A DNA stretch of 16,638 bases from positions 9,858 to 26,495 of the forward strand of contig CAYMPD010000016.1 of assembly GCA_964392445.1 (NCBI GenBank). Reading direction: 5' to 3'. Position 1 is the stretch's first letter. Every line of letters starts with the position of its first letter. The stretch is from an uncultured archaeon (GTDB lineage Archaea > Aenigmatarchaeota > Aenigmatarchaeia > CG10238-14). Positions 699-16,638 of this stretch are shown here, piece by piece. Both the position numbers and the translations under genes were made by a program. Below the pieces are notes generated by a model that was not told where the DNA came from, made no database searches, and was given only the letters and a program-made list of their open reading frames with translations.

Positions 699-944
699 AT
701 GAGACCTATTGAAGTTTCAAGTAATAAATCAAGGATATTTTTTAATACCGAAATTTATGACATGTATCCAATCACAAAGGTTTGTGAGAGATTTGAAGAT
801 GTAGTTAAAATTAAATTAAGGCTCCTTAGGGATGAAGGTTTAATAGAAATTACATTAAAACCGAAAAGTTCCGACGATCTAGAAAAAACTACTTATGAGT
901 TTTGTAATCATGTTCTACATGAACAGACCATGGTGTTAAAGTGA
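699..944 (+). CDS. hxsD: HxsD-like protein (short form, 81 aa)
   Basis: F-N-T-E-I-Y near the N-terminus and I-T-L-K-P-K...E-F-C-N-H-V-L near the C-terminus match the HxsD pattern and align by eye with 12090-12641 (INPKIY...IKPK...DFNNELL). Two genes upstream of hxsB. Confidence 0.7.
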   Translation: MRPIEVSSNKSRIFFNTEIYDMYPITKVCERFEDVVKIKLRLLRDEGLIEITLKPKSSDDLEKTTYEFCNHVLHEQTMVLK

Positions 945-987: not shown

Positions 988-1848
988 TTGGATAAGACAG
1001 AAAGTCCAGAGGTAACAATAAGTAATACAAAGAAAGCATTGAAAAAAGCCGGTTTGGAGGTTGATTTGACCGACATAACAAATCATTATTTTCTTGAGAT
1101 TCCGGCCTATACTTGTGATCTTGTCAAAGGGAATTTTCATGGTCCTGTGGGGGGGGGTTCAAGGAGTTGGGGTAAGGGACTCACTGAAGAAGAGGTAAAA
1201 GTAAGTACTTTAATGGAGTTTATCGAAAGGAGGACTGGGAACTTGTATTTTATTGATAAAGAAAATACAATTCAGTCTAGTGAAACCGTTTTTGATAGTT
1301 ATGTCAACATAAAGGAAAAAAAGCTCCCTCTCGATCCTTTGATTTATCATAGTGAAGCTAAAGAAGATTATAAAAAACTCCGTAGTCTTATTTCAAAAAG
1401 TAAAATGCGTTATACTAAGTATTATTCTTTGAATGAGGAGAAATGGAAGTTTTTGCCAGATAAATGGCACCTCTTTTTCCATGGAACTAATGGTTTGGCC
1501 GCGGGGAACACACTAGAAGAAGTTCTACTTCAGGCAATGTATGAAGTAATAGAGCGACATAACACAGCAAAAACACTTGAAATTCCTGTAAAAAGATTGG
1601 ATATAAATGATAAAGGTATGGAAATATTACAGGACGTCATGCGTAAGTTCAGTAGAAAGGGAATAAAGGTCAGTCTTTTTGATATTACAACTGATATAAA
1701 AATTCCTACTATCTATTGTGCTTTTTTAGATGAAAACGAGAAAGGACAATTAAGATACGCTCAAGGATGGGGTACGATACTTAATGAAATAGAAAAGTGC
1801 GTGCTCAAATTACAAAAAAGGGATATGAGGTTTTATTTAAGAATATAA
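988..1848 (+). CDS. ycaO: YcaO-family ATP-dependent peptide backbone-modifying enzyme, main ORF; appears internally deleted and frameshifted
   Basis: Motifs SWGKGLTEEEVKVSTLMEFIERR and GTNGLAAGNTLEEVLLQAMYEVIERH match YcaO signatures. The usual RAxxExxQ motif after G-x-G-T is absent. The last ~11 residues (RDMRFYLRI) look like out-of-frame tail. The start is a TTG and may not be the true start (see findings). Confidence 0.85.
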   Translation: MDKTESPEVTISNTKKALKKAGLEVDLTDITNHYFLEIPAYTCDLVKGNFHGPVGGGSRSWGKGLTEEEVKVSTLMEFIERRTGNLYFIDKENTIQSSETVFDSYVNIKEKKLPLDPLIYHSEAKEDYKKLRSLISKSKMRYTKYYSLNEEKWKFLPDKWHLFFHGTNGLAAGNTLEEVLLQAMYEVIERHNTAKTLEIPVKRLDINDKGMEILQDVMRKFSRKGIKVSLFDITTDIKIPTIYCAFLDENEKGQLRYAQGWGTILNEIEKCVLKLQKRDMRFYLRI

Positions 1849-2105: not shown

Positions 2106-3545
2106 ATGGCTTTTACCTATTCATCAGATTTTAAGGGTTATGTATTGAATAAGTATTCTAATATGAAATTAGATAAGGATAAAATTTTATTGACGACTAA
2201 TCACGGGGGTTGGGTAATTTTAGATAATGATGAGTTTGAACTTCTGAGGCATGGGAAAGTAGAAGAGGATATAAAATTATACAATCTCTTGAAACAGGAA
2301 GGCATAATAATGGGTGGAGATGAGATTGATAGAATATCTGGTTTTTATAAACAAAAATTAGCTCAATTGTCTACAGCTACAACATTGCATATAATTACTC
2401 CTACTTTGAGGTGTAATCATAAATGTGTTTATTGTTATGCAAAATCGAAACCTCCAGATGCTAAGGAATATGATATGGATGAAGATACTGCTAAAGAGGT
2501 AGTTGATTTTATTTTTCAATGCCCTTCTAAAGGCATCACTTTGGAATTTCAAGGTGGTGAACCATTATTGAATTATTCTATTATAAAATTCATCGTAGAT
2601 TATGCGAACAAATTAAACGAGGAGAAAAAGAAAAAAATAAATTTTAGATTAGTCACCAATTTAACCCTGATGGACGAAGAAAAGTTAGAATGGTTTGTGA
2701 ATAATGATATCGGCCTCCATACTTCACTTGATGGTCCTAAGGAGGTGCATAATAAGAATAGAAAATACTTAAGTGGTAAAGGAAGCTATGATATTGTCGT
2801 TGATTGGATTAAGAAATTGAAAGAGAAAAACATACATATTTCTTGTATGCCCACGGTAACCAAATATTCATTATCACACTGGAAGGATTTGATAGATGAA
2901 TATGTGAATTTGGGTTTAGATAATTTTTGGTTGAGGAAATTGAATGTAGGTGGATTTGCCGTAGATTATTGGGAAAAAATAGGTTACACTTCGGAAGAAT
3001 TTTTGAAATTTTGGAAGAAATCAATTGATTATATTTTCCAATTAAATAAAGAGGGCATAGTTATAATTGAGAATTCCTTAAGTATAATGCTGAGGAACAT
3101 ATTATTTTCAAAGAAATATAATCATTTTGTTTGTCTTACCTCACCTTGTGGTTGTGCTTGGGGACAAGTCAGTTATAACCATAAAGGGGATATATATACT
3201 TGTGACGAAGCAAGAAGTTTTGACGTTTTCAAATTAGGAAATGTTAAGGAAACTACTTATAAAGAATTATATTCTTCTTGGAAAGTGCTTGATATGGTAG
3301 ATTTAACAACGGGTTTATCTTTTGATTGCCAGTCCTGTGTTTATCATCCATTTTGTGGACCTTGTATAGTTGATGAGTATGGTGAGCATGGAAATATAAT
3401 CAAAAAACCCAATTCCTTTAATTGTAGAATAAAGAAAGGTATGTTAAGGTACATATTTGAGAAAATAATCTTAGATGAAGAGAAGTTTCAAATGGCTAAA
3501 GAGTGGGTTGGGTTGAAGAGTAAAAATATACCACATACACCTTAG
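2106..3545 (+). CDS. hxsB: His-Xaa-Ser system radical SAM/SPASM maturase HxsB (479 aa)
   Basis: LHIITPTLRCNHKCVYC (CxxxCxxC), ITLEFQGGEPLLN, TSLDGP...HNKNR, SPCG, YTCDEAR and a SPASM-type CQSCVYHPFCGPC...C. The N-terminal LLTTNHGGW extension is typical of HxsB. Context has HxsD-like and HxS-repeat genes. Confidence 0.88.
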   Translation: MAFTYSSDFKGYVLNKYSNMKLDKDKILLTTNHGGWVILDNDEFELLRHGKVEEDIKLYNLLKQEGIIMGGDEIDRISGFYKQKLAQLSTATTLHIITPTLRCNHKCVYCYAKSKPPDAKEYDMDEDTAKEVVDFIFQCPSKGITLEFQGGEPLLNYSIIKFIVDYANKLNEEKKKKINFRLVTNLTLMDEEKLEWFVNNDIGLHTSLDGPKEVHNKNRKYLSGKGSYDIVVDWIKKLKEKNIHISCMPTVTKYSLSHWKDLIDEYVNLGLDNFWLRKLNVGGFAVDYWEKIGYTSEEFLKFWKKSIDYIFQLNKEGIVIIENSLSIMLRNILFSKKYNHFVCLTSPCGCAWGQVSYNHKGDIYTCDEARSFDVFKLGNVKETTYKELYSSWKVLDMVDLTTGLSFDCQSCVYHPFCGPCIVDEYGEHGNIIKKPNSFNCRIKKGMLRYIFEKIILDEEKFQMAKEWVGLKSKNIPHTP

Positions 3546-4543
3546 TTTTTATTAGGGAATTTAATTACTCTATTAACCATTTTTTCATAAAAGTCATGCT
3601 TACCTTCATTTCTTAGATTTATTATTTTGTTTAGAAAGTCATCTAATGAGCGATTATCAATTATAGTATCTTTAATTTCTAAGTATTTTGGAATTGGGCC
3701 AGCTAGAATATCTAATAGATTCCCGTCATATTTCTCGTTTAGATAGAACCTAACTACGTCTTTTATCCATTCATTTGGCATTGTTCTACCAACAATTTTA
3801 AAATAATCTGTGATTTTCTTGTATTTCTTAAGATCTTCTGGTCTTATCCACCCTGATTTCAATATAGTACTTGGATTTCTCGCCCTTTCTCTAATACATA
3901 TTTCAGAAGCAAAATCTATGAAGTCTTCACTGGATCTTGAAAGATGAGAAGTATAGTTATTGTGTACAATTCTATAGGGACATTTCCACAAACAACCTTC
4001 ATTAACCATTAATCTAATTTTTAAGTTTGTCCCCTCTTTTATTTTTTTGAGCATATTGAAATCTCTATTAATATCATTAGGAACTATTGTCGTTGCTCCC
4101 AAATTTTCATAATATTTTGCTTTTTCTAATGAATCAATACAACAAAAAGCTGATGCTATGATTTCCATATCTTTAAATTCTTTTTTTGTTTTTTGTATGT
4201 AGAGAGGATTGGAAAAAATCGCCCCATTCACCCCAATTTTTCTCATTTTTTTAATAAAGTTTAAAGTTCTTGAAATGAAAGTTACATTATACCAGTCTAA
4301 ACCTTCACAGGTTGAGTTAAACGCCAAATCTACTTTGTAAGAGTATTTTTTACAGAATTTAATCACTTTTCTGATGTGGTCGGGATTTATTTTTTTTACA
4401 TCTCTCCCAGAACCGAATATATCCTGAGGAGCTGAAAGGTAAATCCCCTCTATTCTATTTTTTCCTCCTCTATTTAATTGAACTATCTTTTCCAAGGTTT
4501 CAAAATCATTGTTATATGGAATGGAAAAATTTAATTCGGGCAT
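3542..4543 (-). CDS. U32 peptidase-like family Fe-S protein, copy A (333 aa); candidate hydroxylase
   Basis: NSTC, DINRD, LMVNEGCLWKCPYRIVH, WIRPEDL and FKIVGR fit the U32 family with its Cys cluster and K-x-x-G-R motif. Its stop overlaps the hxsB stop by 4 nt (TTAG 3542-3545). Confidence 0.8.
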   Translation of the reverse strand: MPELNFSIPYNNDFETLEKIVQLNRGGKNRIEGIYLSAPQDIFGSGRDVKKINPDHIRKVIKFCKKYSYKVDLAFNSTCEGLDWYNVTFISRTLNFIKKMRKIGVNGAIFSNPLYIQKTKKEFKDMEIIASAFCCIDSLEKAKYYENLGATTIVPNDINRDFNMLKKIKEGTNLKIRLMVNEGCLWKCPYRIVHNNYTSHLSRSSEDFIDFASEICIRERARNPSTILKSGWIRPEDLKKYKKITDYFKIVGRTMPNEWIKDVVRFYLNEKYDGNLLDILAGPIPKYLEIKDTIIDNRSLDDFLNKIINLRNEGKHDFYEKMVNRVIKFPNKN

Positions 4544-4603: not shown

Positions 4604-5596
4604 ATGTCTGGTAGAATTGACCTTCAACTTGGATATTCTTGCAATAGTAATTGTATCCATTGTTTTAATTTGGATATTATTAGGGAATTAAGAGGTAGGG
4701 GTAAAAGCCTGGATAAAAGTATGAGTGAAATAAAAAAAATAATACTTAAAGCTAAGGAAGAAGGTATTGGGGAAGTGGTTCTAACAGGTGGTGAACCTAC
4801 TATCAGGAAAGACTTTTTGGAAATACTTAGGTTTATTAAGGAGAATGAATTTAAAATTAGTTTACAAACTAACGGGAGAATGTTTTCTTCGCAGGACTTT
4901 ACTAAAAAAGTTTCCTCGATAGCCCCAGATATAGGACTTTTGATACCCATTCATCATGTGAATCCTAAAATTCATGATTCGGTGACAAGAGTAAAGGGAT
5001 CTTGGGCTGAAACCATGAAAGGTATAAATTACCTCAAGAAATATGAAATTGATAATATCTTTTTCAAGACAATAATTTTAAAACAGAATTATAGAAATTT
5101 AATAGATATAACAGAATATGCCAATACAATTGGGATAAATAATATTGATTTTGCATTTTTGGAAGGTAGTGGTCGGGCTAGAAAGAATTGGTTTAAAATA
5201 GCCCCACATTATTCAGAAATAGCTCATCCACTAAAGGACTCAATAAAGCTTGGTAATAAATGGGGGATGAATATCAGTGTTTACGACGTCCCTTTTTGTT
5301 TTTTAAAAGGATTTGAGTCGCATATATCAGAGATAAAAAGTTATGTGATTCCATATTTAAGCGGAAATTTCCCGAAAAGAATATCATCAAGTAGGAGTGA
5401 TAATATAATTGAGGAACTTGTTTTAAAGAGGAGAAAGAAAATAGAAAAATGTACATCATGTAAGTATTTTAAGGTATGTCTTGGTGTATGGTCAGAATAC
5501 ATAGAGTTTTATGGAGGTAGTGAGTTTAAACCAGTTAAGGGTGAAAAAATAAGCAATATTAGAGATTTAAGAACTCTTTTAGAAGAATCAAATTAA
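4604..5596 (+). CDS. HxsC-like radical SAM protein, paralogue 1 (330 aa)
   Basis: GYSCNSNCIHC, LTGGEPTIR, QTNGRMF, HDSVTRVKGSW, LEGSGRARKN, VPFC and C-terminal CTSCKYFKVCLGVW...EFKP. Confidence 0.85.
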   Translation: MSGRIDLQLGYSCNSNCIHCFNLDIIRELRGRGKSLDKSMSEIKKIILKAKEEGIGEVVLTGGEPTIRKDFLEILRFIKENEFKISLQTNGRMFSSQDFTKKVSSIAPDIGLLIPIHHVNPKIHDSVTRVKGSWAETMKGINYLKKYEIDNIFFKTIILKQNYRNLIDITEYANTIGINNIDFAFLEGSGRARKNWFKIAPHYSEIAHPLKDSIKLGNKWGMNISVYDVPFCFLKGFESHISEIKSYVIPYLSGNFPKRISSSRSDNIIEELVLKRRKKIEKCTSCKYFKVCLGVWSEYIEFYGGSEFKPVKGEKISNIRDLRTLLEESN

Positions 5597-5639: not shown

Positions 5640-6605
5640 ATGAAATCAATGACTATGGTATTAGGTTATACATGTAATAATAATTGCATTTTTTGTATAT
5701 TTGGAGATCAGAAACATAAGGGTATAAGGAAAAGTGCAGAGGTAAAAAAAAGGCTAAAAGATATGAGGAAACAGACCTCTAGTATAAATTTTACAGGTGG
5801 TGATCTGACAATCAGGAAGGATTTTTTTGATATTTTGGATTTTGTAAAACAATTGAATTTCTCGGATGTTTCTATTGAAACTAACGGGAGAATGTTCTCT
5901 TCACGGATTTTTACTAAGCGTGTTTTAGCAATTTTCCCTAACATGAGATTTTCTATAAGTGTGTATCACATTAACCCTGAAATTCATGATTCAGTAACAA
6001 GGGTAAAAGGGTCTTGGGATCAGACTGTAAATGGGATAAAGAACATTATAAGCCATGAGAATAATAACATAACAATAGCTTTTGTTGTCGGGAAGTTCAA
6101 TTATAAAATATTACCTTCGGCTGTGGATTTTTTTTCTGATCTGGGAGTTCAAATTTTAGATTTTATTTTGATAAGAAAAGAAGGTGCTGCAAAAGATAAT
6201 TTCGATGATATTGGTGTAAGGATTAGTAAAGTTGTTCCATATTTAACCAAGGCTTTTGATAAGTTGGATAAAACCAATTTAACCGTGAGATCTTATGGAT
6301 TTCCTTTCTGTACTTTAAAGGGGTATGAAAGACATGTTCAAGAATTAGGGTTGATAGAGGCTACATTGGAGGGGCGGAAATCAATTTTCGATTTTGATGA
6401 TCACATTCAAGATCAATTTAGAGAAAGGTTAAGGGGGAGAAGATCTAAATTCAAGAAATGTATGAATTGTAAGTATTACAATATCTGTGAGGGGGTTTGG
6501 ACCCATTATGTTGAGACTTTTGGAAAGGACGAATTTAATCCAGTCCGTGGAGAGAAAATACAAACAAAGAACGAATTAGAGAAATTATTAAAGAACTCTA
6601 GATGA
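5640..6605 (+). CDS. HxsC-like radical SAM protein, paralogue 2 (321 aa)
   Basis: GYTCNNNCIFC, FTGGDLTIR, ETNGRMF, HDSVTRVKGSW, FPFC and CMNCKYYNICEGVW...EFNP. Confidence 0.85.
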   Translation: MKSMTMVLGYTCNNNCIFCIFGDQKHKGIRKSAEVKKRLKDMRKQTSSINFTGGDLTIRKDFFDILDFVKQLNFSDVSIETNGRMFSSRIFTKRVLAIFPNMRFSISVYHINPEIHDSVTRVKGSWDQTVNGIKNIISHENNNITIAFVVGKFNYKILPSAVDFFSDLGVQILDFILIRKEGAAKDNFDDIGVRISKVVPYLTKAFDKLDKTNLTVRSYGFPFCTLKGYERHVQELGLIEATLEGRKSIFDFDDHIQDQFRERLRGRRSKFKKCMNCKYYNICEGVWTHYVETFGKDEFNPVRGEKIQTKNELEKLLKNSR

Positions 6606-6607
6606 TT

Positions 6608-7555
6608 TTAAAATATCTCTTTTGCTAAATTATTACAATAATGGCACTTGGAACAATTTTTATCACAGCTGGTGACTTTATCAAAAAAATCATATGGAAC
6701 TTTTTTGAAGAACTCTGGCATAGAGTCATTTGTTTTCTCCATTAAATAACTTTTGGTTTGTTCTAATATGTTTTTTGTTGGTAATGTTCTACCTTCTATC
6801 TTAAAAAAATTAGTTATTTTCTTATATTTCTTAAGATCCTCTGGTCTTATCCAGGGTGATTTTAGTAATTGTGATGGATCTAGACTCTCTATTTTTCTAC
6901 ATATACCGAATGGATCAAATTCCTCTTCATAGCTTTCTATTGAATAATGAGAAGTGTAATTTTTATGAAATATTCTAAAAGGGCACCTGTAAAGACAAAC
7001 TTCATCTACAAGAAGTTTTAATTCACATCCAACTTCTTTAATGTTTTTTAATTTTTTTAGATTTCTATTAATATCTCTATCTGGAGTTATAGTGTCGGTA
7101 CCAAACTTTTTAAAAAATAAAGCTCTCTGAACAGAAGCTATCTCGGATATTACCGATGTTGTAATTTTTGTATCTGGACATTCTTGCCTAATTTTTTGGA
7201 GGTATAAAGGATTAGCTATGGTGACAGAATCTAATCCCTCTCTTCTCATTCTTTTAATGAAATTTACGGTTTTACTGACTCTAGTTGGTTCGTACCATTC
7301 TATACCTTCGCAAATTGAGTTCAAGATTAAGTTGACCTCTATACCATTATTATGACAAAATTTTATAACATCGATTAAGTCCTTTTTCGTGAATTTGGTT
7401 GTAACCCTACATGAACCAGAAATTTTTTGGGGGCCCGACAAATATATCTCTTTAATTTCATTCCCATTTATTTTTTTTACCTTTATGAGTTCTTCTAGTA
7501 GTTTGAAATCATTGTTATATGGGACAGACAAGTTTATATTTACCAAGTTGAACAC
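6608..7555 (-). CDS. U32 peptidase-like family Fe-S protein, copy B (~312-315 aa); candidate hydroxylase
   Basis: NSIC, DRDINRN, LLVDEVCLYRCPFRIFH, WIRPEDL, FKIEGR and a C-terminal CDKNCSKCHYC. The start may be TTG at 7546 rather than GTG 7555: it gives MVNINLSVPYNNDF, colinear with MPELNFSIPYNNDF of copy A, and is preceded by SD-like AGGTG. Confidence 0.8.
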   Translation of the reverse strand: MFNLVNINLSVPYNNDFKLLEELIKVKKINGNEIKEIYLSGPQKISGSCRVTTKFTKKDLIDVIKFCHNNGIEVNLILNSICEGIEWYEPTRVSKTVNFIKRMRREGLDSVTIANPLYLQKIRQECPDTKITTSVISEIASVQRALFFKKFGTDTITPDRDINRNLKKLKNIKEVGCELKLLVDEVCLYRCPFRIFHKNYTSHYSIESYEEEFDPFGICRKIESLDPSQLLKSPWIRPEDLKKYKKITNFFKIEGRTLPTKNILEQTKSYLMEKTNDSMPEFFKKVPYDFFDKVTSCDKNCSKCHYCNNLAKEIF

Positions 7556-7688: not shown

Positions 7689-8765
7689 TTGAGAATGGTT
7701 GACATGTTAGAACACTTCACTGCCTTAGATTTGGTAAGAATTTCTATTTTTACTATTTTTGGTTCTATCATTTCTTATTATGATATTAAAGAAAAGAAAA
7801 TATATAATAAGCATCTATTAGTCATGTTTATTTTAGGGCTTGTTTTATTTTTTGCTGGCCTTAAATTTTTCTTAATACCAGTTTTTCTAATAAATTTCTT
7901 TCTTTCTCTTTTTTTTGGATTCTTGTTTTGGAAAATGAAAATTTGGAAACCAGGTGATGCTAAACTATTTTCTATATGCTCGATATATTTACCGTTTAAG
8001 TTCTATTCTTCTTTTATAACTTCTCAAATTATTCTGACGAATTTATTCTTAGTGGCGTTCTTTGTATGGGTTATACCTGTTTTAATAAGGACAGATAAAA
8101 ATGCAAAAAAAAAGTCTATTAAACAGGTTTTCAATATAAAGAATATATTTGAGGTATTTTTAACTATTTTCGGTTTATTTTATTTCATAGGACAATTTTT
8201 CACTCTTTTTGACCTTAATTTAATGTACGAATTTGGATATTTCATTACTTTACTTTTTACTTTTTTTCTTTTTGTATTGATTAAGAAGATTTTGCCAGAT
8301 AAAACATTTTATTTTCTGTTATTCTTAACTATAATTAGGTTTTTTGTAGATCCTTCAATATTTGAAATAAATTTTTGGCTGGATTCTTTCTTGAGTATGA
8401 TGGTTATTTTAATTGCTTCTTGGATTGGAGAAATAGCTTATTATATATCTTATGAGAAAAAGAAGGTATCTAATTTGGAAGAAGGGGATATCCCAGTTGG
8501 TTTTGTTACAGAGGGAAAGAGATTAAGAGATTTTGAGAAGTTTATCGAACAAAATTTTGATAATAAAGAAAGAATATTAGAAGATGGTTTAAATGATAAG
8601 GAAATTGGCAAGATCAATAATTTTGAAAGGATAAAATTTATGTTTGTTAAAGAATATATAAGCTTTGCACCATGGTTAATATTATCAACAATTCTGGCAT
8701 CTGTATTGGGTACAGATATTTTCCTATTTTTCATATCCCAGATTTATAGGAGATTTTATGAATGA
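7689..8765 (+). CDS. A24-family (prepilin/preflagellin, FlaK/PibD-like) intramembrane aspartic peptidase
   Basis: Multi-pass membrane protein with first catalytic-Asp motif SYYDIKEKKIYN (D32), second motif WKPGDAKL (D90), a soluble C-terminal insert VSNLEEGDIP and a terminal ISFAPWL helix. The likely start is ATG 7695 or 7704 rather than TTG 7689. Confidence 0.8.
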   Translation: MRMVDMLEHFTALDLVRISIFTIFGSIISYYDIKEKKIYNKHLLVMFILGLVLFFAGLKFFLIPVFLINFFLSLFFGFLFWKMKIWKPGDAKLFSICSIYLPFKFYSSFITSQIILTNLFLVAFFVWVIPVLIRTDKNAKKKSIKQVFNIKNIFEVFLTIFGLFYFIGQFFTLFDLNLMYEFGYFITLLFTFFLFVLIKKILPDKTFYFLLFLTIIRFFVDPSIFEINFWLDSFLSMMVILIASWIGEIAYYISYEKKKVSNLEEGDIPVGFVTEGKRLRDFEKFIEQNFDNKERILEDGLNDKEIGKINNFERIKFMFVKEYISFAPWLILSTILASVLGTDIFLFFISQIYRRFYE

Positions 8766-10617
8766 TCGGTTTCAAACTAAGTATATATTGGTAATTCTAG
8801 TGGTGGGAATCACCATATCTTCCCTTATTTTGCGATCACCTATGAAAATAGGTGATCATATTTTCGAAAAATTAAGTTCCACCTGGCCTATGTTCAGAGG
8901 TGATATATACAGGACAGGGAATTTTGATGGTCTACAAATTGATGAATTTCCTATTTTGATGGATTATGATAAGAGCTGTAAAGATTGTTTAATCTTCAAA
9001 ATTTATGGTAATATAATGGAAAATGAAAGTAAAATAACTGCAAACTTTTCTATAGGGAGAAAAATGAGTTCTATTGCTAAGAAAGTCCCTTTAAATTTAA
9101 GTAGATCTAAGATCGAAGATGAGATAGTCACAATTCAAGTGATAAGATATCAAATATCTGATAAAAACATACTAAAGCCTGAGAAATGGGGTAATTATAT
9201 AATGGACTTTCAGAATGGGTCGGGAACAAGAGAACTCTACTTCCATGAAGGGGAGTATTTTAGTGTGTCACTGGATTTCTTAAATTTTATAGAAGAATCC
9301 GGTTTTCAGGAAAAAGATAATTTTATATTGTCTGACAATGGATTTGACTTTTGGATTTTTGATGGAAGAATTGAAAATAATTTAGATAAAAAATACTTGC
9401 TGGGGAAACCGGATGAAGATTATTTGGATGAAGATTCCATATCTTTATCAAGATCTTCGTCTCGTTTACAAATGCTCACTATTGGGAGTCAAGCTAACGA
9501 GAAAAATAAACAGGATTTTTTTTCAGACGATAATGTTTTTGACCCTTCCCCGATTTTCATAGATTTGAATTCAGATGGTAATGATGAAATAATAACCTAT
9601 TTCAAAAATACTGTTTATAATAATACACAGAAGACCAGAACTTGGGAAGATATGATACTGGCGATTGAATATAAAGAAAATCCAACTCTAATGGAAAGTT
9701 TGGAATTCGGTAATGTCCCTTATATAATGAGTTGGAGATTCATATTATCCGATGAAGTACATACTTCTTTTTCGGCTGGGGATATCAGTTTGGATGGGTC
9801 CCCGGAAATTATTTTCGGCTCTGACGATGGGAATTTATATGTTTTAGATAATAATGGAAATTTGAGATGGAAATTTGACTCTCGGGGAAAAATTAGAAGT
9901 ACCCCCGCAATAGGTGATCTCGATTTTGATAATAAATATGAAATTATTTTCGGCTCTGACGATGGGAATCTATATGTTTTAGACAATAAAGGAAATTTGA
10001 AATGGAAATTTGAGACAGAAAGTATTATAAGATCGAGCCCATTATTTTTTTTGGAAAATTCATCTTCTATAATTACTTTCGGTTCTGACGACGGAAATTT
10101 ATACCTTCTAGATAATAGGGGAAATTTAAGATGTAAGTATGAAACTAGCGGTAAAATAAGAAGCTCCCCTCTGTATTACAATGGAAGTATAATTTTCGGT
10201 TCTGACGACGGTAATATTTATATATTAAACACGGAATGCAACTTAATTAAAAAATATAGAACTAATGATATGGTAAGAAGCTCCCCCTCGTTATTTAATG
10301 GCGAATTTACTATTGGATCAAAAGATGGTAATATTTATTATTTTGATTATAATCAGATTACTAAAAGAATGTTAAATGCGTCGATAATATCAATTCCTGT
10401 GGTTTTAGGGAGCAAATCTTTAGTTTCTACTATTGAGGGGGACATATATTTAATTAATTCCAGATCTGATGAATTACTATTAGATTTGGAAAATGTAAAT
10501 AATTTTTCTTGTTCACCTGCTCTGGGAAAAGTGGAAGAGGGGATAGTATTTTCTTGTTTTTTTATTAAGGAGAGTGCTGATACTAAATATTCGGGTTTTT
10601 TTATTCATACTATATAA
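8758..10617 (+). CDS. Membrane-anchored PQQ-like/FG-GAP beta-propeller repeat protein (619 aa)
   Basis: N-terminal hydrophobic helix (YILVILVVGITISSLIL), WPMFRGDIYRTG motif, five FGSDDGNLY-type blades with RS[ST]P ends, and Ca-binding-like loops DLNSDGNDE, DISLDGSPE, DLDFDNKYE. Overlaps the upstream gene by 8 nt and the downstream gene by 1 nt (TAATG). Confidence 0.8.
   Translation: MNDRFQTKYILVILVVGITISSLILRSPMKIGDHIFEKLSSTWPMFRGDIYRTGNFDGLQIDEFPILMDYDKSCKDCLIFKIYGNIMENESKITANFSIGRKMSSIAKKVPLNLSRSKIEDEIVTIQVIRYQISDKNILKPEKWGNYIMDFQNGSGTRELYFHEGEYFSVSLDFLNFIEESGFQEKDNFILSDNGFDFWIFDGRIENNLDKKYLLGKPDEDYLDEDSISLSRSSSRLQMLTIGSQANEKNKQDFFSDDNVFDPSPIFIDLNSDGNDEIITYFKNTVYNNTQKTRTWEDMILAIEYKENPTLMESLEFGNVPYIMSWRFILSDEVHTSFSAGDISLDGSPEIIFGSDDGNLYVLDNNGNLRWKFDSRGKIRSTPAIGDLDFDNKYEIIFGSDDGNLYVLDNKGNLKWKFETESIIRSSPLFFLENSSSIITFGSDDGNLYLLDNRGNLRCKYETSGKIRSSPLYYNGSIIFGSDDGNIYILNTECNLIKKYRTNDMVRSSPSLFNGEFTIGSKDGNIYYFDYNQITKRMLNASIISIPVVLGSKSLVSTIEGDIYLINSRSDELLLDLENVNNFSCSPALGKVEEGIVFSCFFIKESADTKYSGFFIHTI
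9805..10013 (+). repeat. Intragenic direct repeat: two 74-bp copies (9805-9878 and 9940-10013), 135-bp period, encoding propeller blades
   Basis: The first 30 bp (gaaattattttcggctctgacgatgggaat) are identical and there are 4 mismatches over 74 bp by manual comparison. Confidence 0.9.
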
Positions 10618-11600
10618 TGGGAAGGATTATGGAAGTTGAGGGCTTGAATGTAAATTTTGGACATTCCTGTAATAATAATTGTATTCATTGTTTAATAGGA
10701 CAAGAAATGAGGACAAAATATAGAGACCGGACTACAGAAGAAATCAAAGAACTTCTTTTAGAGGCCAGTAAAAAGACAAATTACACTATATTTATAGGAG
10801 GGGAAGCTACACTAAGAAGGGATTTTTTAGAATTACTTGAATTTGCAAAAAGTTTAGGATTGAATATACATTTAGAAACAAATGGTAGAATGTTTTCTAT
10901 AAAAAGTTTTGCGAGGAGAGTATTTCAAATAGATCCTAATCTTGATATTGTGATGAGTTTTCATCACACTTGCCCTAATATACAGGACAAAATCACGGGT
11001 GTTAAGGGCTCTTTTAAACAAAGTGTTAAAGGTATGGAAAATATCAGAAAATTTGGAAAAGGAGGAGATGGGGAATTAGGAGTGATTTGTGTCATTACTA
11101 AATTAAATTATAAAAACCTATCAGAACTTGTAACTTTTTTGAATAGTAAAAGTATTGATCAATTAGATTTTACTTTAATGAGAATTGGGGGAGACGCTCT
11201 TGAAAATTTTGATAAAATATTTGTTCCAATAAAGGAGATTCAGCCTTACTTGTTTGAGGCTATAAAAAAATCAAGGAAATTGGATATAAGAACAAAAACC
11301 TATGGCTTTCCTTTCTGTACCATAAAAGGGTATGAAAAGTATGCGGTTGAAGTTGGTTTTATTGAAAGTTTGATTAAGAAAAAGAAGTTTGTATTTTGGG
11401 AGTTAAATGAAAGAATTGAGTGGCATAAAACGAGATTAGAGATAAAAACCAAATTATCTAGGTGCCTAGACTGTAAATATTATAATATCTGTGAAGGTCT
11501 TTGGAAAGAATATATGTTATTGGAACCTGAAATATTAAAACCAATTAAAGGTAGAAGATTGAAAAGCCAGAAAGAGACATCGAAATTACTTGGAAAGTGA
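10617..11600 (+). CDS. HxsC-like radical SAM protein, paralogue 3 (327 aa)
   Basis: GHSCNNNCIHC, FIGGEATLR, ETNGRMF, QDKITGVKGSF, FPFC and CLDCKYYNICEGLW...LKP. Confidence 0.85.
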   Translation: MGRIMEVEGLNVNFGHSCNNNCIHCLIGQEMRTKYRDRTTEEIKELLLEASKKTNYTIFIGGEATLRRDFLELLEFAKSLGLNIHLETNGRMFSIKSFARRVFQIDPNLDIVMSFHHTCPNIQDKITGVKGSFKQSVKGMENIRKFGKGGDGELGVICVITKLNYKNLSELVTFLNSKSIDQLDFTLMRIGGDALENFDKIFVPIKEIQPYLFEAIKKSRKLDIRTKTYGFPFCTIKGYEKYAVEVGFIESLIKKKKFVFWELNERIEWHKTRLEIKTKLSRCLDCKYYNICEGLWKEYMLLEPEILKPIKGRRLKSQKETSKLLGK

Positions 11601-11617
11601 TAAAATCCAATCTTACA

Positions 11618-12010
11618 TCAACCGTAATTTAGTACAATATAGTTCTTATGACTAGCATTGGCACTTCTATGGTTGTTTCCATGTCCCCATCCAGCAGACC
11701 CACTACCAGAATTGCCACTACCATGATTACTTGCGTCACAATGGCTAGCTGGAACACCATCAGCTGATGAATGCGCTTCAGAGCTCCAATGCCCCCACCC
11801 ACCCCTCGTACCACTATTATGCGCTTCCGAATGCCCCGGATCACAATGATCATGTTTAGAAGAAATATCAGCGCCCATACCTTTTGAGAACAGATTCAAT
11901 GCTTCAAATCCAGCAAACATTGCACCCATGGAAATCAACGCTTGCTTTGAAGCACCCCCTGATTCTCCAAGTATGAATGATTTTAATTCTTTTTTTATTT
12001 TGGGTAACAT
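11618..12010 (-). CDS. hxsA: His-Xaa-Ser repeat precursor peptide (HxsA-like, ~130 aa)
   Basis: Basic leader and hydrophobic segment, then a G/S/H-rich core with 11 His, including HNS, HWS, HSS, HGS, HRS, HGN, HKN and two HCD. The ORF track starts at TTG 12031. ATG 12010 (MLPKIKK) is preferred because minus-strand TTTATTAA (12035-12042) ends 24 nt upstream; ATG 12019 is also possible. Confidence 0.8.
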   Translation of the reverse strand: MLPKIKKELKSFILGESGGASKQALISMGAMFAGFEALNLFSKGMGADISSKHDHCDPGHSEAHNSGTRGGWGHWSSEAHSSADGVPASHCDASNHGSGNSGSGSAGWGHGNNHRSANASHKNYIVLNYG

Positions 12011-12089: not shown

Positions 12090-12641
12090 ATGAAAGAAGC
12101 TAAAAAAATAGATGTAAATAAAACTAAAAATGAAGTTATAATCAAAATAAATCCGAAAATATATCCCTTACCAATAGTTTATCAAACATCTGATGTTTTC
12201 ATAGATAAATCATATGTTTTCCTGGATGGTGATCCCGAAGAGGAAATAGAAGTAATGATAAAACCCAAAGAGAAAGGAGTTGATTTAAAAAAGATAGCTG
12301 GTGATTTCAATAATGAATTATTGAATTATTCTGCATATTTCATAAGATCTCAAATGAACAAAGACTTCAGACATATTATATTGGAGAAAGCACTTTCTAC
12401 TGTAGAGAGGGGAGGTAGCAAGATAAAAGAAAAAACTCAGGAAAAGCAAAAGATAGACATAGGACTTAAAGTTCCGTTGTATAAAGCAGAAGAATCCTCC
12501 GAAAATAGAGCTGACAATGAAGAATTCGATGAGGATGAAATAAGAAAAGTCTGGGAAGAACAAAAAGGTGCAATAAAAGATAAGTCTAAAAGAACTAAAA
12601 CCAAGGCCAACAAAGAGGACAGCAATGAAAAGAAAGATTAA
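12090..12641 (+). CDS. hxsD: HxsD-like protein (long form, 183 aa, charged C-terminal tail)
   Basis: INPKIYPL...DKSYVFLDGDPEEEIEVMIKPK...DFNNELLNY...IILEKAL fits HxsD. The acidic/basic tail contains EIRKVWEE. Adjacent to the precursor and overlapping the next radical SAM gene by 17 nt. Confidence 0.8.
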   Translation: MKEAKKIDVNKTKNEVIIKINPKIYPLPIVYQTSDVFIDKSYVFLDGDPEEEIEVMIKPKEKGVDLKKIAGDFNNELLNYSAYFIRSQMNKDFRHIILEKALSTVERGGSKIKEKTQEKQKIDIGLKVPLYKAEESSENRADNEEFDEDEIRKVWEEQKGAIKDKSKRTKTKANKEDSNEKKD

Positions 12642-13623
12642 TAAAGTCGATATAAAATTTGGCTACTCCTGTAATAATAATTGTATACATTGTGTAGTGG
12701 CTGGTCACAAAGAAAGACTTAAAGAAAATAATCTATCGATAGATAGGACAACTAAGGAAATCAAAAAAATTATTTCTGAAGTTAAAGAAAGAGGAGCTAA
12801 CTCCCTCGTGTTCACCGGAGGAGAAGTCACAATACGAGAGGATTTTTTAGATCTATTGAAATACACTAAAAATCTAGATTTAATTATAGGGCTACAGACG
12901 AATGGGAGAATGTTTCATAAAAAGAGTTTTGTTAAAAAAACTTTAAAAATAGCTCCAGATATGCATTTCGAAATCGCTCTTCATTCTGATAAAGAGGAGA
13001 ATCATGATAAAATAACTAAAACTAAAGGTTCTTGGAAACAAACAATAGAGGGTATTAAAAATCTTAAGAGGAATGGAGTCACTAAACTGAATCTGAAGAT
13101 AGTTATTTCGAGATTGAATTATAAAGATTTAGTAGGTATAGTTGAACTTTCAGATAAATTAAATGTAAAACAAATAGATATAGCTTTTCCCCATGGAATG
13201 GGTAATGCTTTGAGAAATTGGCAGGATGTGATCCCAAAGTATAATGAGATAATGGAATATATATTGAAAGCAATAGAATTAGCGAATGAAAAAGATATAT
13301 TTATTAGTTTGGAGGCGGTCCCTTTTTGTTTCTTGGTAGGTTTTGAAAGACATGTTAGTGAGCTAAGATATCTTCATGATTCTTTAGAGGGAAATATCTC
13401 AGAATTAATGCAAATAGGTGACCCAACTTGTGACTGGCATAAGGTAAGATGTAATATTAAGAATAAAACAATAGATTGTAAGGACTGTAAATATTTTTAT
13501 ATATGTGAAGGTGTTTGGGAAGAATATATTGAATTACATGGATCAAAAGAACTTAAACCAGTTAAAGGTAAAAAAATAAGAACTAAAGCTGACTTACAAG
13601 ATATTATTAAGAAATCTAAATGA
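12625..13623 (+). CDS. hxsC: HxsC-like radical SAM protein, paralogue 4 (332 aa), coupled to hxsD
   Basis: GYSCNNNCIHC, FTGGEVTIR, QTNGRMF, HDKITKTKGSW, HGMGNALRN, VPFC and CKDCKYFYICEGVW...ELKP. GAGGA precedes the start inside the hxsD 3' end. Confidence 0.82.
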   Translation: MKRKINKVDIKFGYSCNNNCIHCVVAGHKERLKENNLSIDRTTKEIKKIISEVKERGANSLVFTGGEVTIREDFLDLLKYTKNLDLIIGLQTNGRMFHKKSFVKKTLKIAPDMHFEIALHSDKEENHDKITKTKGSWKQTIEGIKNLKRNGVTKLNLKIVISRLNYKDLVGIVELSDKLNVKQIDIAFPHGMGNALRNWQDVIPKYNEIMEYILKAIELANEKDIFISLEAVPFCFLVGFERHVSELRYLHDSLEGNISELMQIGDPTCDWHKVRCNIKNKTIDCKDCKYFYICEGVWEEYIELHGSKELKPVKGKKIRTKADLQDIIKKSK

Positions 13624-13667: not shown

Positions 13668-14750
13668 ATGAAAAACGAAATTAGAGTTATGAATCTAAAA
13701 AATGCATCTAGCCTAAATAAGATGTTGAGTTTATTTATAATATTTTTCATGTTAGTTCTAGTATCCAATCAAATATTTGCTCAAGAATGTGGTGATGGGA
13801 GTGGGAGTGATTGCGATACTACCTGTTATGTTTCAGTAAATTTACATGAGGGGTATTCTAGTGAGACTAGCCCCTCTGGTACAAACTTTACCTCTATTCA
13901 TTCTTCAACATCTGGCTCCTGTAGTGATACTAGTGCCTATAGTTTTACATTCGATTTAGATGACCAAGAAACAAACTGGGATAATAGATTATGTTATGGG
14001 TTCAGTGATTCAGCTTATTTTTATGCTTATGGGATAGAAGACGATTATGATTCTACCGACTATCAATTTTTATTCAATACCTCTGAAGTTTCATGTAATG
14101 ACGCTTTAAACATTACCTTCAGAAATTCTACTTCACATGTAACTCAAAATGGAAAAGTCACAGTATACGAAGCAGGTACATCTACTATACTGGGCTGGGG
14201 AAATACAACTGAGACAGGTCAAGTCGTATTTGGTTTGAATAGTACCAAAATATATGATTTCAAAATAGAGACTGATGAATATCAACAAAATATATGGTTT
14301 AGGAATGCAAGAGTCCCTGATACAATAGATGTTTCAGAAAACAAAAAATGGGTTCCAGAATCTACAACAGCTGCCAATAAGAAATTCACAGCAGGTCATA
14401 TCGTACCCACAGAGATGCATATTCTTGCTCCCTATGGAAAATACCCAATAGAAAACATAAGTATAGATAATCCACTTCCAGCAAATATAACTTTTGCGGG
14501 AAATGTAGTTGTTGAAAAACATACTTCAAGTGGGACCTCTACATGTGATAAAATACCAGATTCTTCGACGAGCTTTCTTATTGATAAAACCGACTGTGCA
14601 TTTTTATCTTCTTTGAATGTCACGGATCATGAGTGGTTGAGGGTACATTACAGAATCAAGTTGGCTGGTCCTGAGGCCTATTCAAGTGTAGGTGAAGAAA
14701 AAAATTATACCTTAAATGCAGCTGTATTGAGATTTGATGTCCCAATTTGA
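13668..14750 (+). CDS. Secreted/cell-surface glycoprotein-like protein (360 aa) with a possible DUF11-like C-terminal domain
   Basis: Signal-peptide-like MLSLFIIFFMLVLVSNQIFA. The mature part has 8 Cys and 10 N-x-S/T sequons. ISIDNPLPANITF resembles the DUF11-type D-x-L-P motif. The start may be a downstream ATG. Confidence 0.7.
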   Translation: MKNEIRVMNLKNASSLNKMLSLFIIFFMLVLVSNQIFAQECGDGSGSDCDTTCYVSVNLHEGYSSETSPSGTNFTSIHSSTSGSCSDTSAYSFTFDLDDQETNWDNRLCYGFSDSAYFYAYGIEDDYDSTDYQFLFNTSEVSCNDALNITFRNSTSHVTQNGKVTVYEAGTSTILGWGNTTETGQVVFGLNSTKIYDFKIETDEYQQNIWFRNARVPDTIDVSENKKWVPESTTAANKKFTAGHIVPTEMHILAPYGKYPIENISIDNPLPANITFAGNVVVEKHTSSGTSTCDKIPDSSTSFLIDKTDCAFLSSLNVTDHEWLRVHYRIKLAGPEAYSSVGEEKNYTLNAAVLRFDVPI

Positions 14751-14956
14751 TAGTTGAAAAAAAATTCTAACTTGTTCAAAACAAATTTCTTTTGATTTGT
14801 TCTATAATTTATTTAATCGGGAATTTCTAAAATAATATCTAACTAACTGGGGGATGGGATATAAATTAGACACGATTTTATTAATTTTAATTATTTAGTT
14901 CTGTCAACTTTTTCATATTCATTATTGTCTCTTCTAAACTTCATATTCTTTCTTTT

Positions 14957-15011
14957 TTCAGGAGGTCGTGTCAAACCCATCCCCCGGGTTCGACCTTCTG
15001 AATTTTCTTTT
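14957..15011 (+). terminator. GC-rich hairpin followed by a U-rich tract; terminator/attenuator-like, upstream of the large surface protein
   Basis: ttcaggaggtcg (14957-14968) pairs with cgaccttctgaa (14991-15002): 12 bp including one G.U. Inner aaccc/gggtt stem, 5-nt bulge, 7-nt loop, then ttttctttt. Confidence 0.45.
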
Positions 15012-15035
15012 AAATCCAACATAAATTTCAAAGGA

Positions 15036-16638
15036 ATGGTTATTTTCTTAATTCTCTTCTTGTTTTCAGTTGGTGCTCTTTCCAGTTTAGCTCAATCTGA
15101 TTTAGAGATGATTCAGAAAAAAGAGTATGAACCAGAGATTTTGGGTGATACATGGACTAAAAAAATCATGATATTCACAGAAGGGGATAAGCAATATTTT
15201 GATGTTCCTGTAGTTGTTAGTGTCCCTGAAGATTATGGGAATTTTGAGCTGTATAAAATTTTTGATGAGAATTCTTTTCAAAAGATATCTGAAAAGGAAA
15301 TTTACGAATTTATGAAAATAGATCAAGATGGGAATGGAAAAATAGACCATGTTTCATGGGTCGTGCCTTCAGTTGGTGAAGAAACTTTCTTGATAGAATC
15401 ATTAGAAGAAGAAATCCCAACTAAAGTAGACTCTACCGTTATAACGACTATAAAAACCACGACGCAATCTACAATCTTAACTACACCGACCACCCTTCAA
15501 ACAACAACTATTACCACTGGGACATCTAAAACCTTTACAACACAAAATATAACTCACTCGGTTTCTACAACAACTTCTTCGGTAAAATCTACGATATCTG
15601 ATCAAAAATCAACAATAGAAAGCAAGACTAGATTAACTACAACCTCTACAATGGAATCGGATTACGAGGAAAAGGAAATTGAGAAGATATATGCACAAGA
15701 TTGGGATTTAATACAGGGTGATATAGAAGTTGGAGAAACTGTTAAGTGGGAGAAATCTATAAATATCGAAAATATTGAGGAGGATAAAGTTAATAAAAAA
15801 ATTGAATTAGAACTTCCTCAGGGGGCTGAAAATGTTCAAATAAAGGAAGAGGTAGATTTACTTGTGGGACTTAAGTGGAGAAAAAAAATAGGTTCAGAAA
15901 TCAATTTAGATAAAATTTCGGATAAATTGCTACTGATTGAATTTTATGATGAATTTAATCCACTAGAGAAGAAAAAATATATACTTAATTTCAGGACCCA
16001 GGCTCCAGAAAAATTAGAAATTTATACTGAACAGACTGAAGAAAAATGGCTAAAAAAAGTTAAGATAACAAGTGATGCTTATGTACATTATCAAAACGTT
16101 ATTTCTTATGCTGATATAATGGAATCTAAAAAAGAGCAGATTCATTTATATTGGATGAAAGATGGTGAAAAACAGGATGTTGCCAATGATCCTAAATTTG
16201 ATGTACAATTTATTGACACTAATGCCAATTCTTTAGTAGATAAATTAAGGTGGGTAGTACCTGAATTATCCGAACAAGAATTTTTAATTGAAATTGATTT
16301 AACTGTTATTAATGTTCAGTCCTACCCTGTGGTAGGAGGAAACTGGACGGTAGAATTTAATACCACGGGCACTGCGGATTTAGTTATATGGGGTATCGAT
16401 GGGACTACCTTTTCGGAAAAATTATTTGATGATCCTTTGACAAAAGATGATCTTAATATTATGAGTGTTTTTTGTGGTGAAAAAGAGTTGGAGGACCAAT
16501 ATTACATTTTAGAATCTTTAAAAAAGGAAAATGATAACTTTTCCAACCAAACCACAACAACACTCCAAGAAAACATAACCTTAAACCAAACCACAACAAC
16601 ACTCCAAGAAAACATAACCTTAAACCAAACCACAACAA
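15036..16638 (+). CDS. Large secreted/surface protein, >=534 aa, runs off the right edge
   Basis: Hand translation from ATG 15036 (preceded by AAGGA) is stop-free to the end. It shows signal peptide MVIFLILFLFSVGALSSLA, a Thr/Ser-rich linker, two copies of an 82-aa domain and terminal NQTTTTLQENITL repeats. The frame is open back to 14865, so an upstream TTG (14925) cannot be excluded. Confidence 0.85.
   Translation, partial: MVIFLILFLFSVGALSSLAQSDLEMIQKKEYEPEILGDTWTKKIMIFTEGDKQYFDVPVVVSVPEDYGNFELYKIFDENSFQKISEKEIYEFMKIDQDGNGKIDHVSWVVPSVGEETFLIESLEEEIPTKVDSTVITTIKTTTQSTILTTPTTLQTTTITTGTSKTFTTQNITHSVSTTTSSVKSTISDQKSTIESKTRLTTTSTMESDYEEKEIEKIYAQDWDLIQGDIEVGETVKWEKSINIENIEEDKVNKKIELELPQGAENVQIKEEVDLLVGLKWRKKIGSEINLDKISDKLLLIEFYDEFNPLEKKKYILNFRTQAPEKLEIYTEQTEEKWLKKVKITSDAYVHYQNVISYADIMESKKEQIHLYWMKDGEKQDVANDPKFDVQFIDTNANSLVDKLRWVVPELSEQEFLIEIDLTVINVQSYPVVGGNWTVEFNTTGTADLVIWGIDGTTFSEKLFDDPLTKDDLNIMSVFCGEKELEDQYYILESLKKENDNFSNQTTTTLQENITLNQTTTTLQENITLNQTTT
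16545..16638 (+). repeat. 39-bp perfect tandem repeat (2 full copies plus 16 nt), encoding NQTTTTLQENITL
   Basis: aaccaaaccacaacaacactccaagaaaacataacctta at 16545-16583 and 16584-16622, with a partial copy at 16623-16638. Confidence 0.95.

Follow-up and report, generated by a model that had tools for sequence, protein, structure and literature searches.

A prepilin-type aspartic peptidase as a candidate leader peptidase in an archaeal variant of the His-Xaa-Ser radical SAM system

We analysed a 16.6-kb stretch of DNA (the window; C16:9858-26495) from an uncultured archaeon of the Aenigmatarchaeota, whose 1.2-Mb genome has 30% G+C and is 95% complete. Judged by its gene content, the locus belongs with the His-Xaa-Ser (HXS) radical S-adenosylmethionine (SAM) systems as an archaeal variant, and it encodes a membrane aspartic peptidase of the prepilin peptidase family A24 together with a small precursor protein that this peptidase probably cleaves. 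The peptidase, here called A24L, lies at 7689..8765 (+) and was recognized through Pfam PF01478; it is a GxGD enzyme of 358 amino acids with catalytic residues D32 and D90, the latter in a K-P-G-D motif. Its open reading frame (ORF) overlaps by 8 nt that of a beta-propeller protein with an N-terminal hydrophobic segment (8758..10617, +; Pfam Beta-prop_CGLA and PQQ_2), which in turn shares 1 base with the ORF of HxsC-like radical SAM enzyme 3 (10617..11600, +; best NCBIfam families HxsC4 and HxsC, both below cut-off). The propeller gene is translationally coupled between these two neighbours, and the enzyme 3 ORF stops 18 nt short of the converging precursor ORF (11618..12010, -), which encodes 130 amino acids from ATG 12010 and was identified by its homologues and a weak match to NCBIfam HxsA3. 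Re-checking the coordinates bore out the overlaps and the convergence described in the first-pass annotation of this DNA, as well as its statement that no ATP-binding cassette (ABC) transporter or C39 peptidase is present, none being found among the domain matches of any ORF in the window.

Genes related to known Hxs families lie on both sides of this unit. An HxsB radical SAM/SPASM maturase (2106..3545, +) scores 437 bits against TIGR03978 (cut-off 370), and an HxsD-related small protein (699..944, +) passes NF038315 (HxsD_rel) with 47.9 bits at a cut-off of 41. An HxsD-like protein (12090..12641, +) reaches 38.2 bits against TIGR03976, below the cut-off of 50. Besides enzyme 3, there are HxsC-like radical SAM enzymes 1 (4604..5596, +), 2 (5640..6605, +) and 4 (12625..13623, +), each assigned to its best NCBIfam family at a score below cut-off; the four paralogues score 100-126 bits against TIGR03977 (cut-off 267.9) and 119-139 bits against HxsC4 (cut-off 500), and none passes.

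The precursor consists of a charged leader of 18 residues, a polar spacer, a hydrophobic stretch and a core rich in His, Cys and Ser. Its start codon is uncertain (ATG 12010, ATG 12019 or TTG 12031); homologues mostly start M-(x)-(x)-[LI]-P-K-I-K-K. In the numbering from ATG 12010, the F-x-x-x-E-x-G motif of the first-pass annotation runs from F12 to G18 (F-I-L-G-E-S-G; 11957..11977, -), and leader conservation and co-fold contacts mark it as the putative recognition motif (F12, E16 and G18). The cut had been expected after G25, counted from 12031, which is the same residue as Gly18; its codon is 11957-11959, and the predicted scissile bond follows directly. The hydrophobic stretch had been described as moderate and as containing a Glu, and both points stand: by Kyte-Doolittle hydropathy, A24 to F41 (11888..11941, -) forms a putative membrane segment or signal h-region whose best 18-residue mean is 1.48.

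Leader and core are both common to 20-21 homologues from DPANN metagenomes, which share 49-64% identity with the precursor; close relatives come from assemblies labelled Aenigmarchaeota, "DPANN group" and "Nanobdellati". The core consensus of these window-type precursors is HDHCDPGH...HSSADGVPASHC...AHKNYVYLSYG, and an HDHCDPGH-type core suggests metal binding. The window core has scattered H-x-S/N/D and no tandem His-Xaa-Ser repeats, while true repeats occur in relatives with the same leader. When 371 genomes of the phylum were searched with a profile built from the homologues, 14 of them gave leader-only matches, on small proteins that are otherwise unlike the precursor. With further loci added, we aligned the leader in 31 precursors from DPANN archaea and gut Clostridia, with the conserved Gly as position -1. 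The cores behind these leaders range from true His-Xaa-Ser repeats and Cys/Thr-rich or Thr/Ser/Pro-rich tracts to the window type.

Across the 31 leaders, of median length 21 residues, the charged part spans about 18-21 residues and reads [LI]-P-K-I-K-K ... F-[IL]-L-x-E-x-G, followed by a polar spacer of five residues, x-[IAV]-S-K-Q, and a hydrophobic stretch that begins at +6/+7. Phe at -7, Glu at -3 and Lys at +4 are each found in 29 of 31, and Gly at -1 in 30, with Ala once; L/I/V/M occupy -6, E/D/G/S -4, E/K/R -2, I/A/V +2 and S/T/Q +3, and +1 is variable. The residues conserved in at least 90% of the precursors are I5, F12, E16, G18, K22 and G29, and [LI]-P-K-I-K-K forms a second conserved block upstream of the cleavage motif. 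The F-x-x-x-E-x-G motif is hence near-invariant among homologous precursors. A loose F...E.G occurs within the first 40 residues of 14 of the 2,656 ORFs of the source genome and is weak evidence alone; the extended consensus F[ILVM]..E.G...K is found in this precursor only. Many relatives also have a small-x-small site after the hydrophobic stretch (L-L-P-E-V-A-A-A/H-T-N-S-F; here and below, a slash marks a possible or known cut). Against the NCBIfam models, the window precursor scores 21 bits with HxsA3 (NF038309; cut-off 65), and the core of the HDHCDPGH type differs from the HxS repeats of HxsA3 and HxsA4 (NF038313). Both models align to the leaders at their N-terminal ends, with none of 10 precursors reaching either cut-off; a Clostridial precursor adjoining an A24L gene passes HxsA3 with 106.9 bits.

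Two variations on these precursors stand apart. In two DPANN relatives (L016:7059-8366, -; L017:8842-9528, +), a Hint/intein-like domain lies directly behind the His/Ser core (Hom_end_hint, E 7.5e-21; PT-HINT, E 1.1e-16), an arrangement suggesting that the modified core is ligated or undergoes C-terminal autoproteolysis. On a bacterial contig with trigger factor and ClpP genes nearby, a precursor (L076:7097-7576, +) joins the same type of leader to a core that is rich in Trp, Gly and Asp and not in His; it adjoins HxsD-like and HxsB-like genes, and an A24L gene lies about 1 kb upstream.

Flp/Tad prepilins have a basic leader ending F-x-x-[DE]-E-x-G that A24 peptidases cut after the Gly, leaving a hydrophobic N-terminal helix, and the precursor had been put forward as a candidate 'pilin-RiPP', a ribosomally synthesized and post-translationally modified peptide (RiPP) with an Flp/type IV pilin-like leader. 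In 13 real Clostridial Flp genes, the leaders end F-x-x-[DE]-E-[RK]-G and continue Q-G-M-V-E-Y-G-L-I-I, and the Hxs leaders agree with them at -7 to -1 only. Profile alignment of the two families with hhalign spans 42 columns and brings the Hxs E-x-G onto the Flp cleavage Gly (probability 57%, E 1e-4). Like the Flp prepilins and their A24 enzymes TadV/CpaA, the Hxs precursor combines a long charged leader of this type with an expected cut after the Gly and a downstream hydrophobic helix. Unlike them, it has no Glu5/Tyr6 (G/xxxxEY), its x-I-S-K-Q spacer is polar with a conserved Lys at +4, its hydrophobic stretch is weaker, and it would carry a large modified C-terminal domain. Pfam Flp_Fap (PF04964) matched none of 10 precursors even at E ≤ 10, and no Flp genes were found in three Clostridia genomes that carry an Hxs/A24L cluster. 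The window site, S-G/G-A-S-K, also falls outside the archaeal class III pattern ([KRDE][GA][ALIFQMVED][ILMVTAS]x3 with a hydrophobic stretch from the cut) in a regular-expression scan, which about 14 ORFs of the source genome fit, with short M-K-G/Q leaders. The sequences justify the term "Flp-like recognition site" and not the label "pilin", and a true Flp or type IV pilin is not supported.

The genome does encode canonical pilins. Two type IV filament loci (C1:31394-37373 and C10:15607-20342) contain an assembly ATPase, platform genes and short-leader pilins of the M-K-G/Q-x-S-I-E-Y type, and these pilins are likely substrates of a short housekeeping A24 peptidase encoded on C21. Their dissimilarity to the Hxs leader fits the need for a private peptidase. 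Hydrophobicity is 1.6-3.0 in the genome's canonical pilins, the lower end being set by the scan's cut-off of >1.6, and the best 18-residue mean has a median of 1.69 in the 31 leader relatives against the 1.48 of the window precursor. The contigs with assembly ATPase and platform genes include C1 and C10; C16 has none, nor has C26, which carries a second Hxs locus, and the window cluster, unlike Tad systems, has no Tad assembly genes. No assembly ATPase or platform gene appeared among the genes mapped at other A24L loci, where the maps used Hxs-type queries and no search was aimed at assembly genes.

The source genome has three A24 genes, encoding 284 amino acids on C21, 358 in the window and 376 on C26. 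The possibility that A24L is the housekeeping prepilin peptidase of this genome was rejected: the short enzyme on C21, which adjoins a ribosomal protein operon whose S4e gene marks the organism as an archaeon, groups with other housekeeping copies. Against the PF01478 gathering score of 26.5, the window A24L reaches 31.5 bits, the C26 copy, which additionally carries the archaeal C-terminal domain PF06819, 27.5 bits and a Clostridial copy 29.4 bits; NCBIfam gave no match for A24L. In an alignment of 17 long copies with 21-40% identity, both catalytic aspartates named in the first-pass annotation, Asp32 and Asp90, are invariant, as are N40, K92, P102 and F326. The motif around the second Asp is relaxed, being K-P-G-D in the window enzyme and [AP]-[GA]-D in other copies. 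When the 17-sequence profile was run on the 371 genomes of the phylum, scores were bimodal, with 36 full-length genes in 32 genomes at 156-428 bits and housekeeping A24 genes at no more than 68 bits with partial profile coverage only. A tree, from a quick maximum-likelihood search only, splits 12 housekeeping A24 from 39 A24L sequences (SH-aLRT 100) and groups the window enzyme with A24L from two loci that encode the same precursor family.

The fold of A24L appears to be that of the archaeal prepilin peptidases. In a comparison of its AlphaFold2 model (mean pLDDT 85) with 48,161 solved chains by VIA-align, the top match was FlaK (3S0X_B; Z 11.3, root-mean-square deviation 4.2, 169 of 186 residues); Z below about 13 can be common among helical bundles, but the gap to the next-best match, at Z 6.2, is large. 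Foldseek found nothing in the PDB at E ≤ 0.001 (FlaK ranked tenth, E 4), and a sequence-profile search of solved structures did not reach FlaK. With FlaK, PibD and EppA (MEROPS A24B), A24L shares two catalytic Asp in membrane helices and the predicted fold. It differs in forming a separate clade, in its length (342-395 against 262-351 amino acids), in being found only in Hxs clusters, alongside a separate housekeeping A24 in all genomes checked, and in having a predicted substrate outside the class III pattern. The last 55 or so residues of A24L (about 290-345; window 8550-8762), an amphipathic plus a membrane helix, gave insignificant Sec61-gamma-like matches (E 0.07-0.16).

The linkage of A24L to Hxs genes is tight. 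All 36 full-length A24L genes of the phylum sample adjoin homologues of HxsB, HxsD or HxsC, and usually a leader-bearing precursor too; the recurrent core module consists of HxsB, A24L, HxsD and the precursor. HxsD (TIGR03976) and A24L each occur in 32 of the 371 genomes, 31 of them shared, and the two mismatches are a genome with an A24L fragment only and a genome that is 86% complete. Each of the 14 genomes with a leader match holds one short and one long A24. The distance between the long one and the leader ORF is mostly 0.8-3.5 kb; in two genomes it is 12 and 19 kb. Such co-occurrence counts overstate the statistical weight, because the relatives are not independent; the module is patchy across more than 10 families. 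Within the source genome itself, the second Hxs locus (C26:1-3606; L003/L005) encodes HxsB, two HxsD-like ORFs, its own A24L, with about 39% identity to the window enzyme over the N-terminal domain, and a leader-bearing precursor cut by the contig end.

The association extends beyond the phylum sample. Among 1.84 billion proteins, the A24L profile matched 598 cluster representatives (50% identity) at E ≤ 1e-30, and a related-locus search with a three-sequence A24L alignment gave 4 loci. We checked the genomic context at six loci in addition to the 36 genes. Three representatives drawn from the lower ranks of the 150 best metagenomic matches all lie beside a leader-bearing precursor or beside HxsD plus an HxsB-like gene; the context of one of the three is bacterial. 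In three metagenome-assembled genomes of gut Clostridia (L059:7060-11586, L060 and L061; human-gut, Hadza), the order is precursor, HxsD, A24L, HxsC, HxsB, and the precursor is of HxsA3 type with the same leader. The Clostridial A24L is sister to the window clade in the quick tree (SH-aLRT 89), which hints at transfer of the cluster between archaea and bacteria. A missing link between A24 and hxs clusters elsewhere would have refuted the first-pass annotation; the phylum sample, the lower-ranked representatives and the Clostridia all show the A24L subfamily tightly linked to such clusters.

A co-fold of A24L with precursor residues 1-60, both supplied as alignments of our own making, supports binding of the precursor with Gly18 at the active site. 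The interface score ipSAE was 0.63 against 0.00 for the best control, a mark reached by 58 of 80 solved complexes as against 2 of 110 mismatched pairs. Agreement of contacts between runs is 74% or better, and the partner has a pLDDT of 63 or more. Contacts of the highest confidence are those of A24L residues 85-89, which contain the K-P-G just before D90, with S17, G18, G19, A20 and S21 of the precursor, and D32 lies within the interface, so that the predicted complex places G18 at the active-site motif. Leader residues 1-10, with the P-K-I-K-K block, barely contact A24L; this block probably serves another partner, or topology.

The closest described system is the HXS of Pseudomonadota, with the proteins HxsD-HxsB-HxsC-HxsA (TIGR03976-03979). 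In E. coli, the four-gene HXS blocks phage DNA entry (Li et al., Nat Commun 2026, PMC13128918); the HxsA protein, equipped with a Sec-like signal peptide, undergoes a non-canonical N-terminal cleavage that depends on HxsB, HxsC and HxsD, and acts in the periplasm, and the protease for this processing was not identified (PMC13128918). According to the same study, which mentions no peptidase, prepilin or archaea, 99.7% of HXS systems occur in Pseudomonadota and more than 99.8% comprise four proteins (PMC13128918). Common to this system and the window are HxsB, proteins like HxsC and HxsD, and a substrate rich in His and Ser that bears an N-terminal export signal and on the window side is predicted to be N-terminally processed and to act outside the cytoplasm. 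The window differs in its four HxsC-like paralogues, two U32-family proteins, YcaO-domain protein, propeller and private A24 enzyme; its precursor lacks a peptidoglycan-binding domain and shows HxS only as a loose pattern, and its leader is Flp-like at -7 to -1 where the HXS substrate has a plain Sec signal. By analogy with HXS, the locus could act as an envelope-located antiviral barrier.

Taken as a whole, the reading that we consider fairly likely is that of an archaeal HXS variant in which the precursor bears a two-part signal and the cluster's own A24L cuts the leader after Gly18. A24L is probably the dedicated leader peptidase of the Hxs precursor, a role that the first-pass annotation had proposed and to which motif conservation, linkage to Hxs genes, the retained catalytic aspartates and the co-fold all point. 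HxsB, the HxsC-like enzymes and HxsD would modify the His/Cys/Ser-rich core in the cytoplasm, as suggested by homology to HXS (PMC13128918). The hydrophobic helix would then enter the membrane with the basic N-terminus inside, as its charge predicts, and the FlaK-like A24L would cut after Gly18 at the cytoplasmic face. The core would end up outside the cell, where the helix may keep it anchored or a second cut may set it free. Membrane anchoring of the product is possible, as is release of the core by signal peptidase at A-A-A/H, a site seen in the sequences of many relatives; a pilus-like filament is unlikely.

Several observations weigh against this reading. In E. coli HXS, no A24 enzyme takes part in the processing of HxsA (PMC13128918), and it is an assumption that radical SAM enzymes modify the core in the cytoplasm before it is exported. 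The window site has Ser at -2 and no charged residue there, the hydrophobic stretch behind it is weak (1.48) and contains Glu, and the residues after the Gly in this family (variable +1, Lys at +4, polar to +6) are unlike those of any characterised A24 substrate. In two loci of the window's own precursor family, A24L lies 19 kb off (G356) or not within 10 kb (L008). The 57% probability that hhalign gives to the match of Hxs and Flp profiles is not decisive. The ipSAE mark is calibrated only approximately for alignments of our own making, and the controls were possibly not membrane helices. The case for cleavage by A24L is computational throughout.

The N-terminal region may instead be an ordinary Sec-type signal with an extended n-region read by the radical SAM enzymes, signal peptidase I freeing the core and A24L clearing or trimming the membrane stub afterwards. 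A24 enzymes and signal peptide peptidase both belong to the GxGD class, the hydrophobicity of the stretch is typical of a signal peptide, and many relatives have the small-x-small A-A-A/H site behind it. The Sec-like signal peptide of E. coli HxsA (PMC13128918) points the same way. Yet conservation peaks around Gly18, which lies cytoplasmic to the stretch, where A24 enzymes cut and where the co-fold puts the A24L active site, and it is not obvious why stub clearing should require a private, co-evolving paralogue for each cluster. We regard this alternative as unlikely, while giving it more credence than the others that we considered. It is quite improbable that the substrate of A24L is another cluster protein, for example the membrane-anchored propeller or a surface protein encoded nearby, while the precursor motif only binds HxsD or the maturases. 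The translational coupling of the window A24L to the propeller gene speaks for such a substrate, as does the scant contact of leader residues 1-10 with A24L, which makes another partner likely for that block; but the minimal module of HxsB, A24L, HxsD and precursor includes neither a propeller nor a surface protein, and no member other than the precursor combines an N-terminal signal-like region with an invariant Gly.

The first-pass annotation had also suggested, as one of two options, that the modified core is assembled in a filament, and the processed precursor could be a true pilin, a radical-SAM-modified, His-rich subunit of a filament or sheet built by type IV machinery or by none. The Flp-like upstream half of the leader, the prepilin type of the peptidase and the two type IV assembly loci in the genome speak for this. 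The features of a pilin are missing after the Gly, however: Glu5/Tyr6 is absent, the cut would not expose a hydrophobic N-terminus, Lys at +4 is conserved, and Flp_Fap does not match at E ≤ 10. C16 and C26 lack an assembly ATPase or platform, no assembly genes appeared at other A24L loci in maps made with Hxs-type queries only, and the assembly loci hold their own canonical pilins. We think the filament proposal slightly less probable still than a different substrate. The least probable alternative, and a very improbable one, is that A24L is non-proteolytic and serves as a membrane scaffold or an export aid for the modified protein. The enzyme is divergent, has no NCBIfam model and has P-G-D in place of G-x-G-D in the window, and FlaK was missed by the sequence search of structures; against this stands the invariance of both catalytic Asp, Asn40, Lys92 and Pro102 at 21-40% identity.

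Other genes of the window complete the picture of the locus. A YcaO-domain protein (988..1848, +; Pfam PF02624, E 4e-36) appears short, covering profile positions 2-212 of 325; its ORF has 286 codons for amino acids, a 58-residue ORF (1797-1973) overlaps its 3' end, and a frameshift or truncation is possible. Two U32-family proteins (Pfam PF01136) are encoded on the reverse strand at 3542..4543 (a) and 6608..7555 (b). The position of the propeller gene is kept in loci L006, L007 and L008. In the same three loci, giant or secreted surface proteins (Laminin_G_3, 3,860-4,266 amino acids; L006:1-4358, L007:1-7919, L008:1-5436) flank the precursor, and in the window the region 13668-16637 contains a 360-residue ORF (13668-14750) homologous to parts of them.

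The genes of such A24L loci are annotated today as generic prepilin peptidases and hypothetical proteins. No curated model or description ties HxsA3 or HxsA4 to an A24 peptidase, and our literature search found no paper linking A24 or prepilin peptidases with Hxs or RiPPs. We know of no earlier case of a prepilin-type peptidase acting as the leader peptidase of a radical-SAM-modified protein; if our reading is true, this would be the first. Together with the conserved cut site, A24L is a concrete candidate for the missing protease step in Hxs processing. It would define a branch of Hxs systems, in DPANN archaea and gut Clostridia, with a dedicated intramembrane aspartic peptidase, in which Flp-type leader recognition would be employed outside pilus biogenesis.

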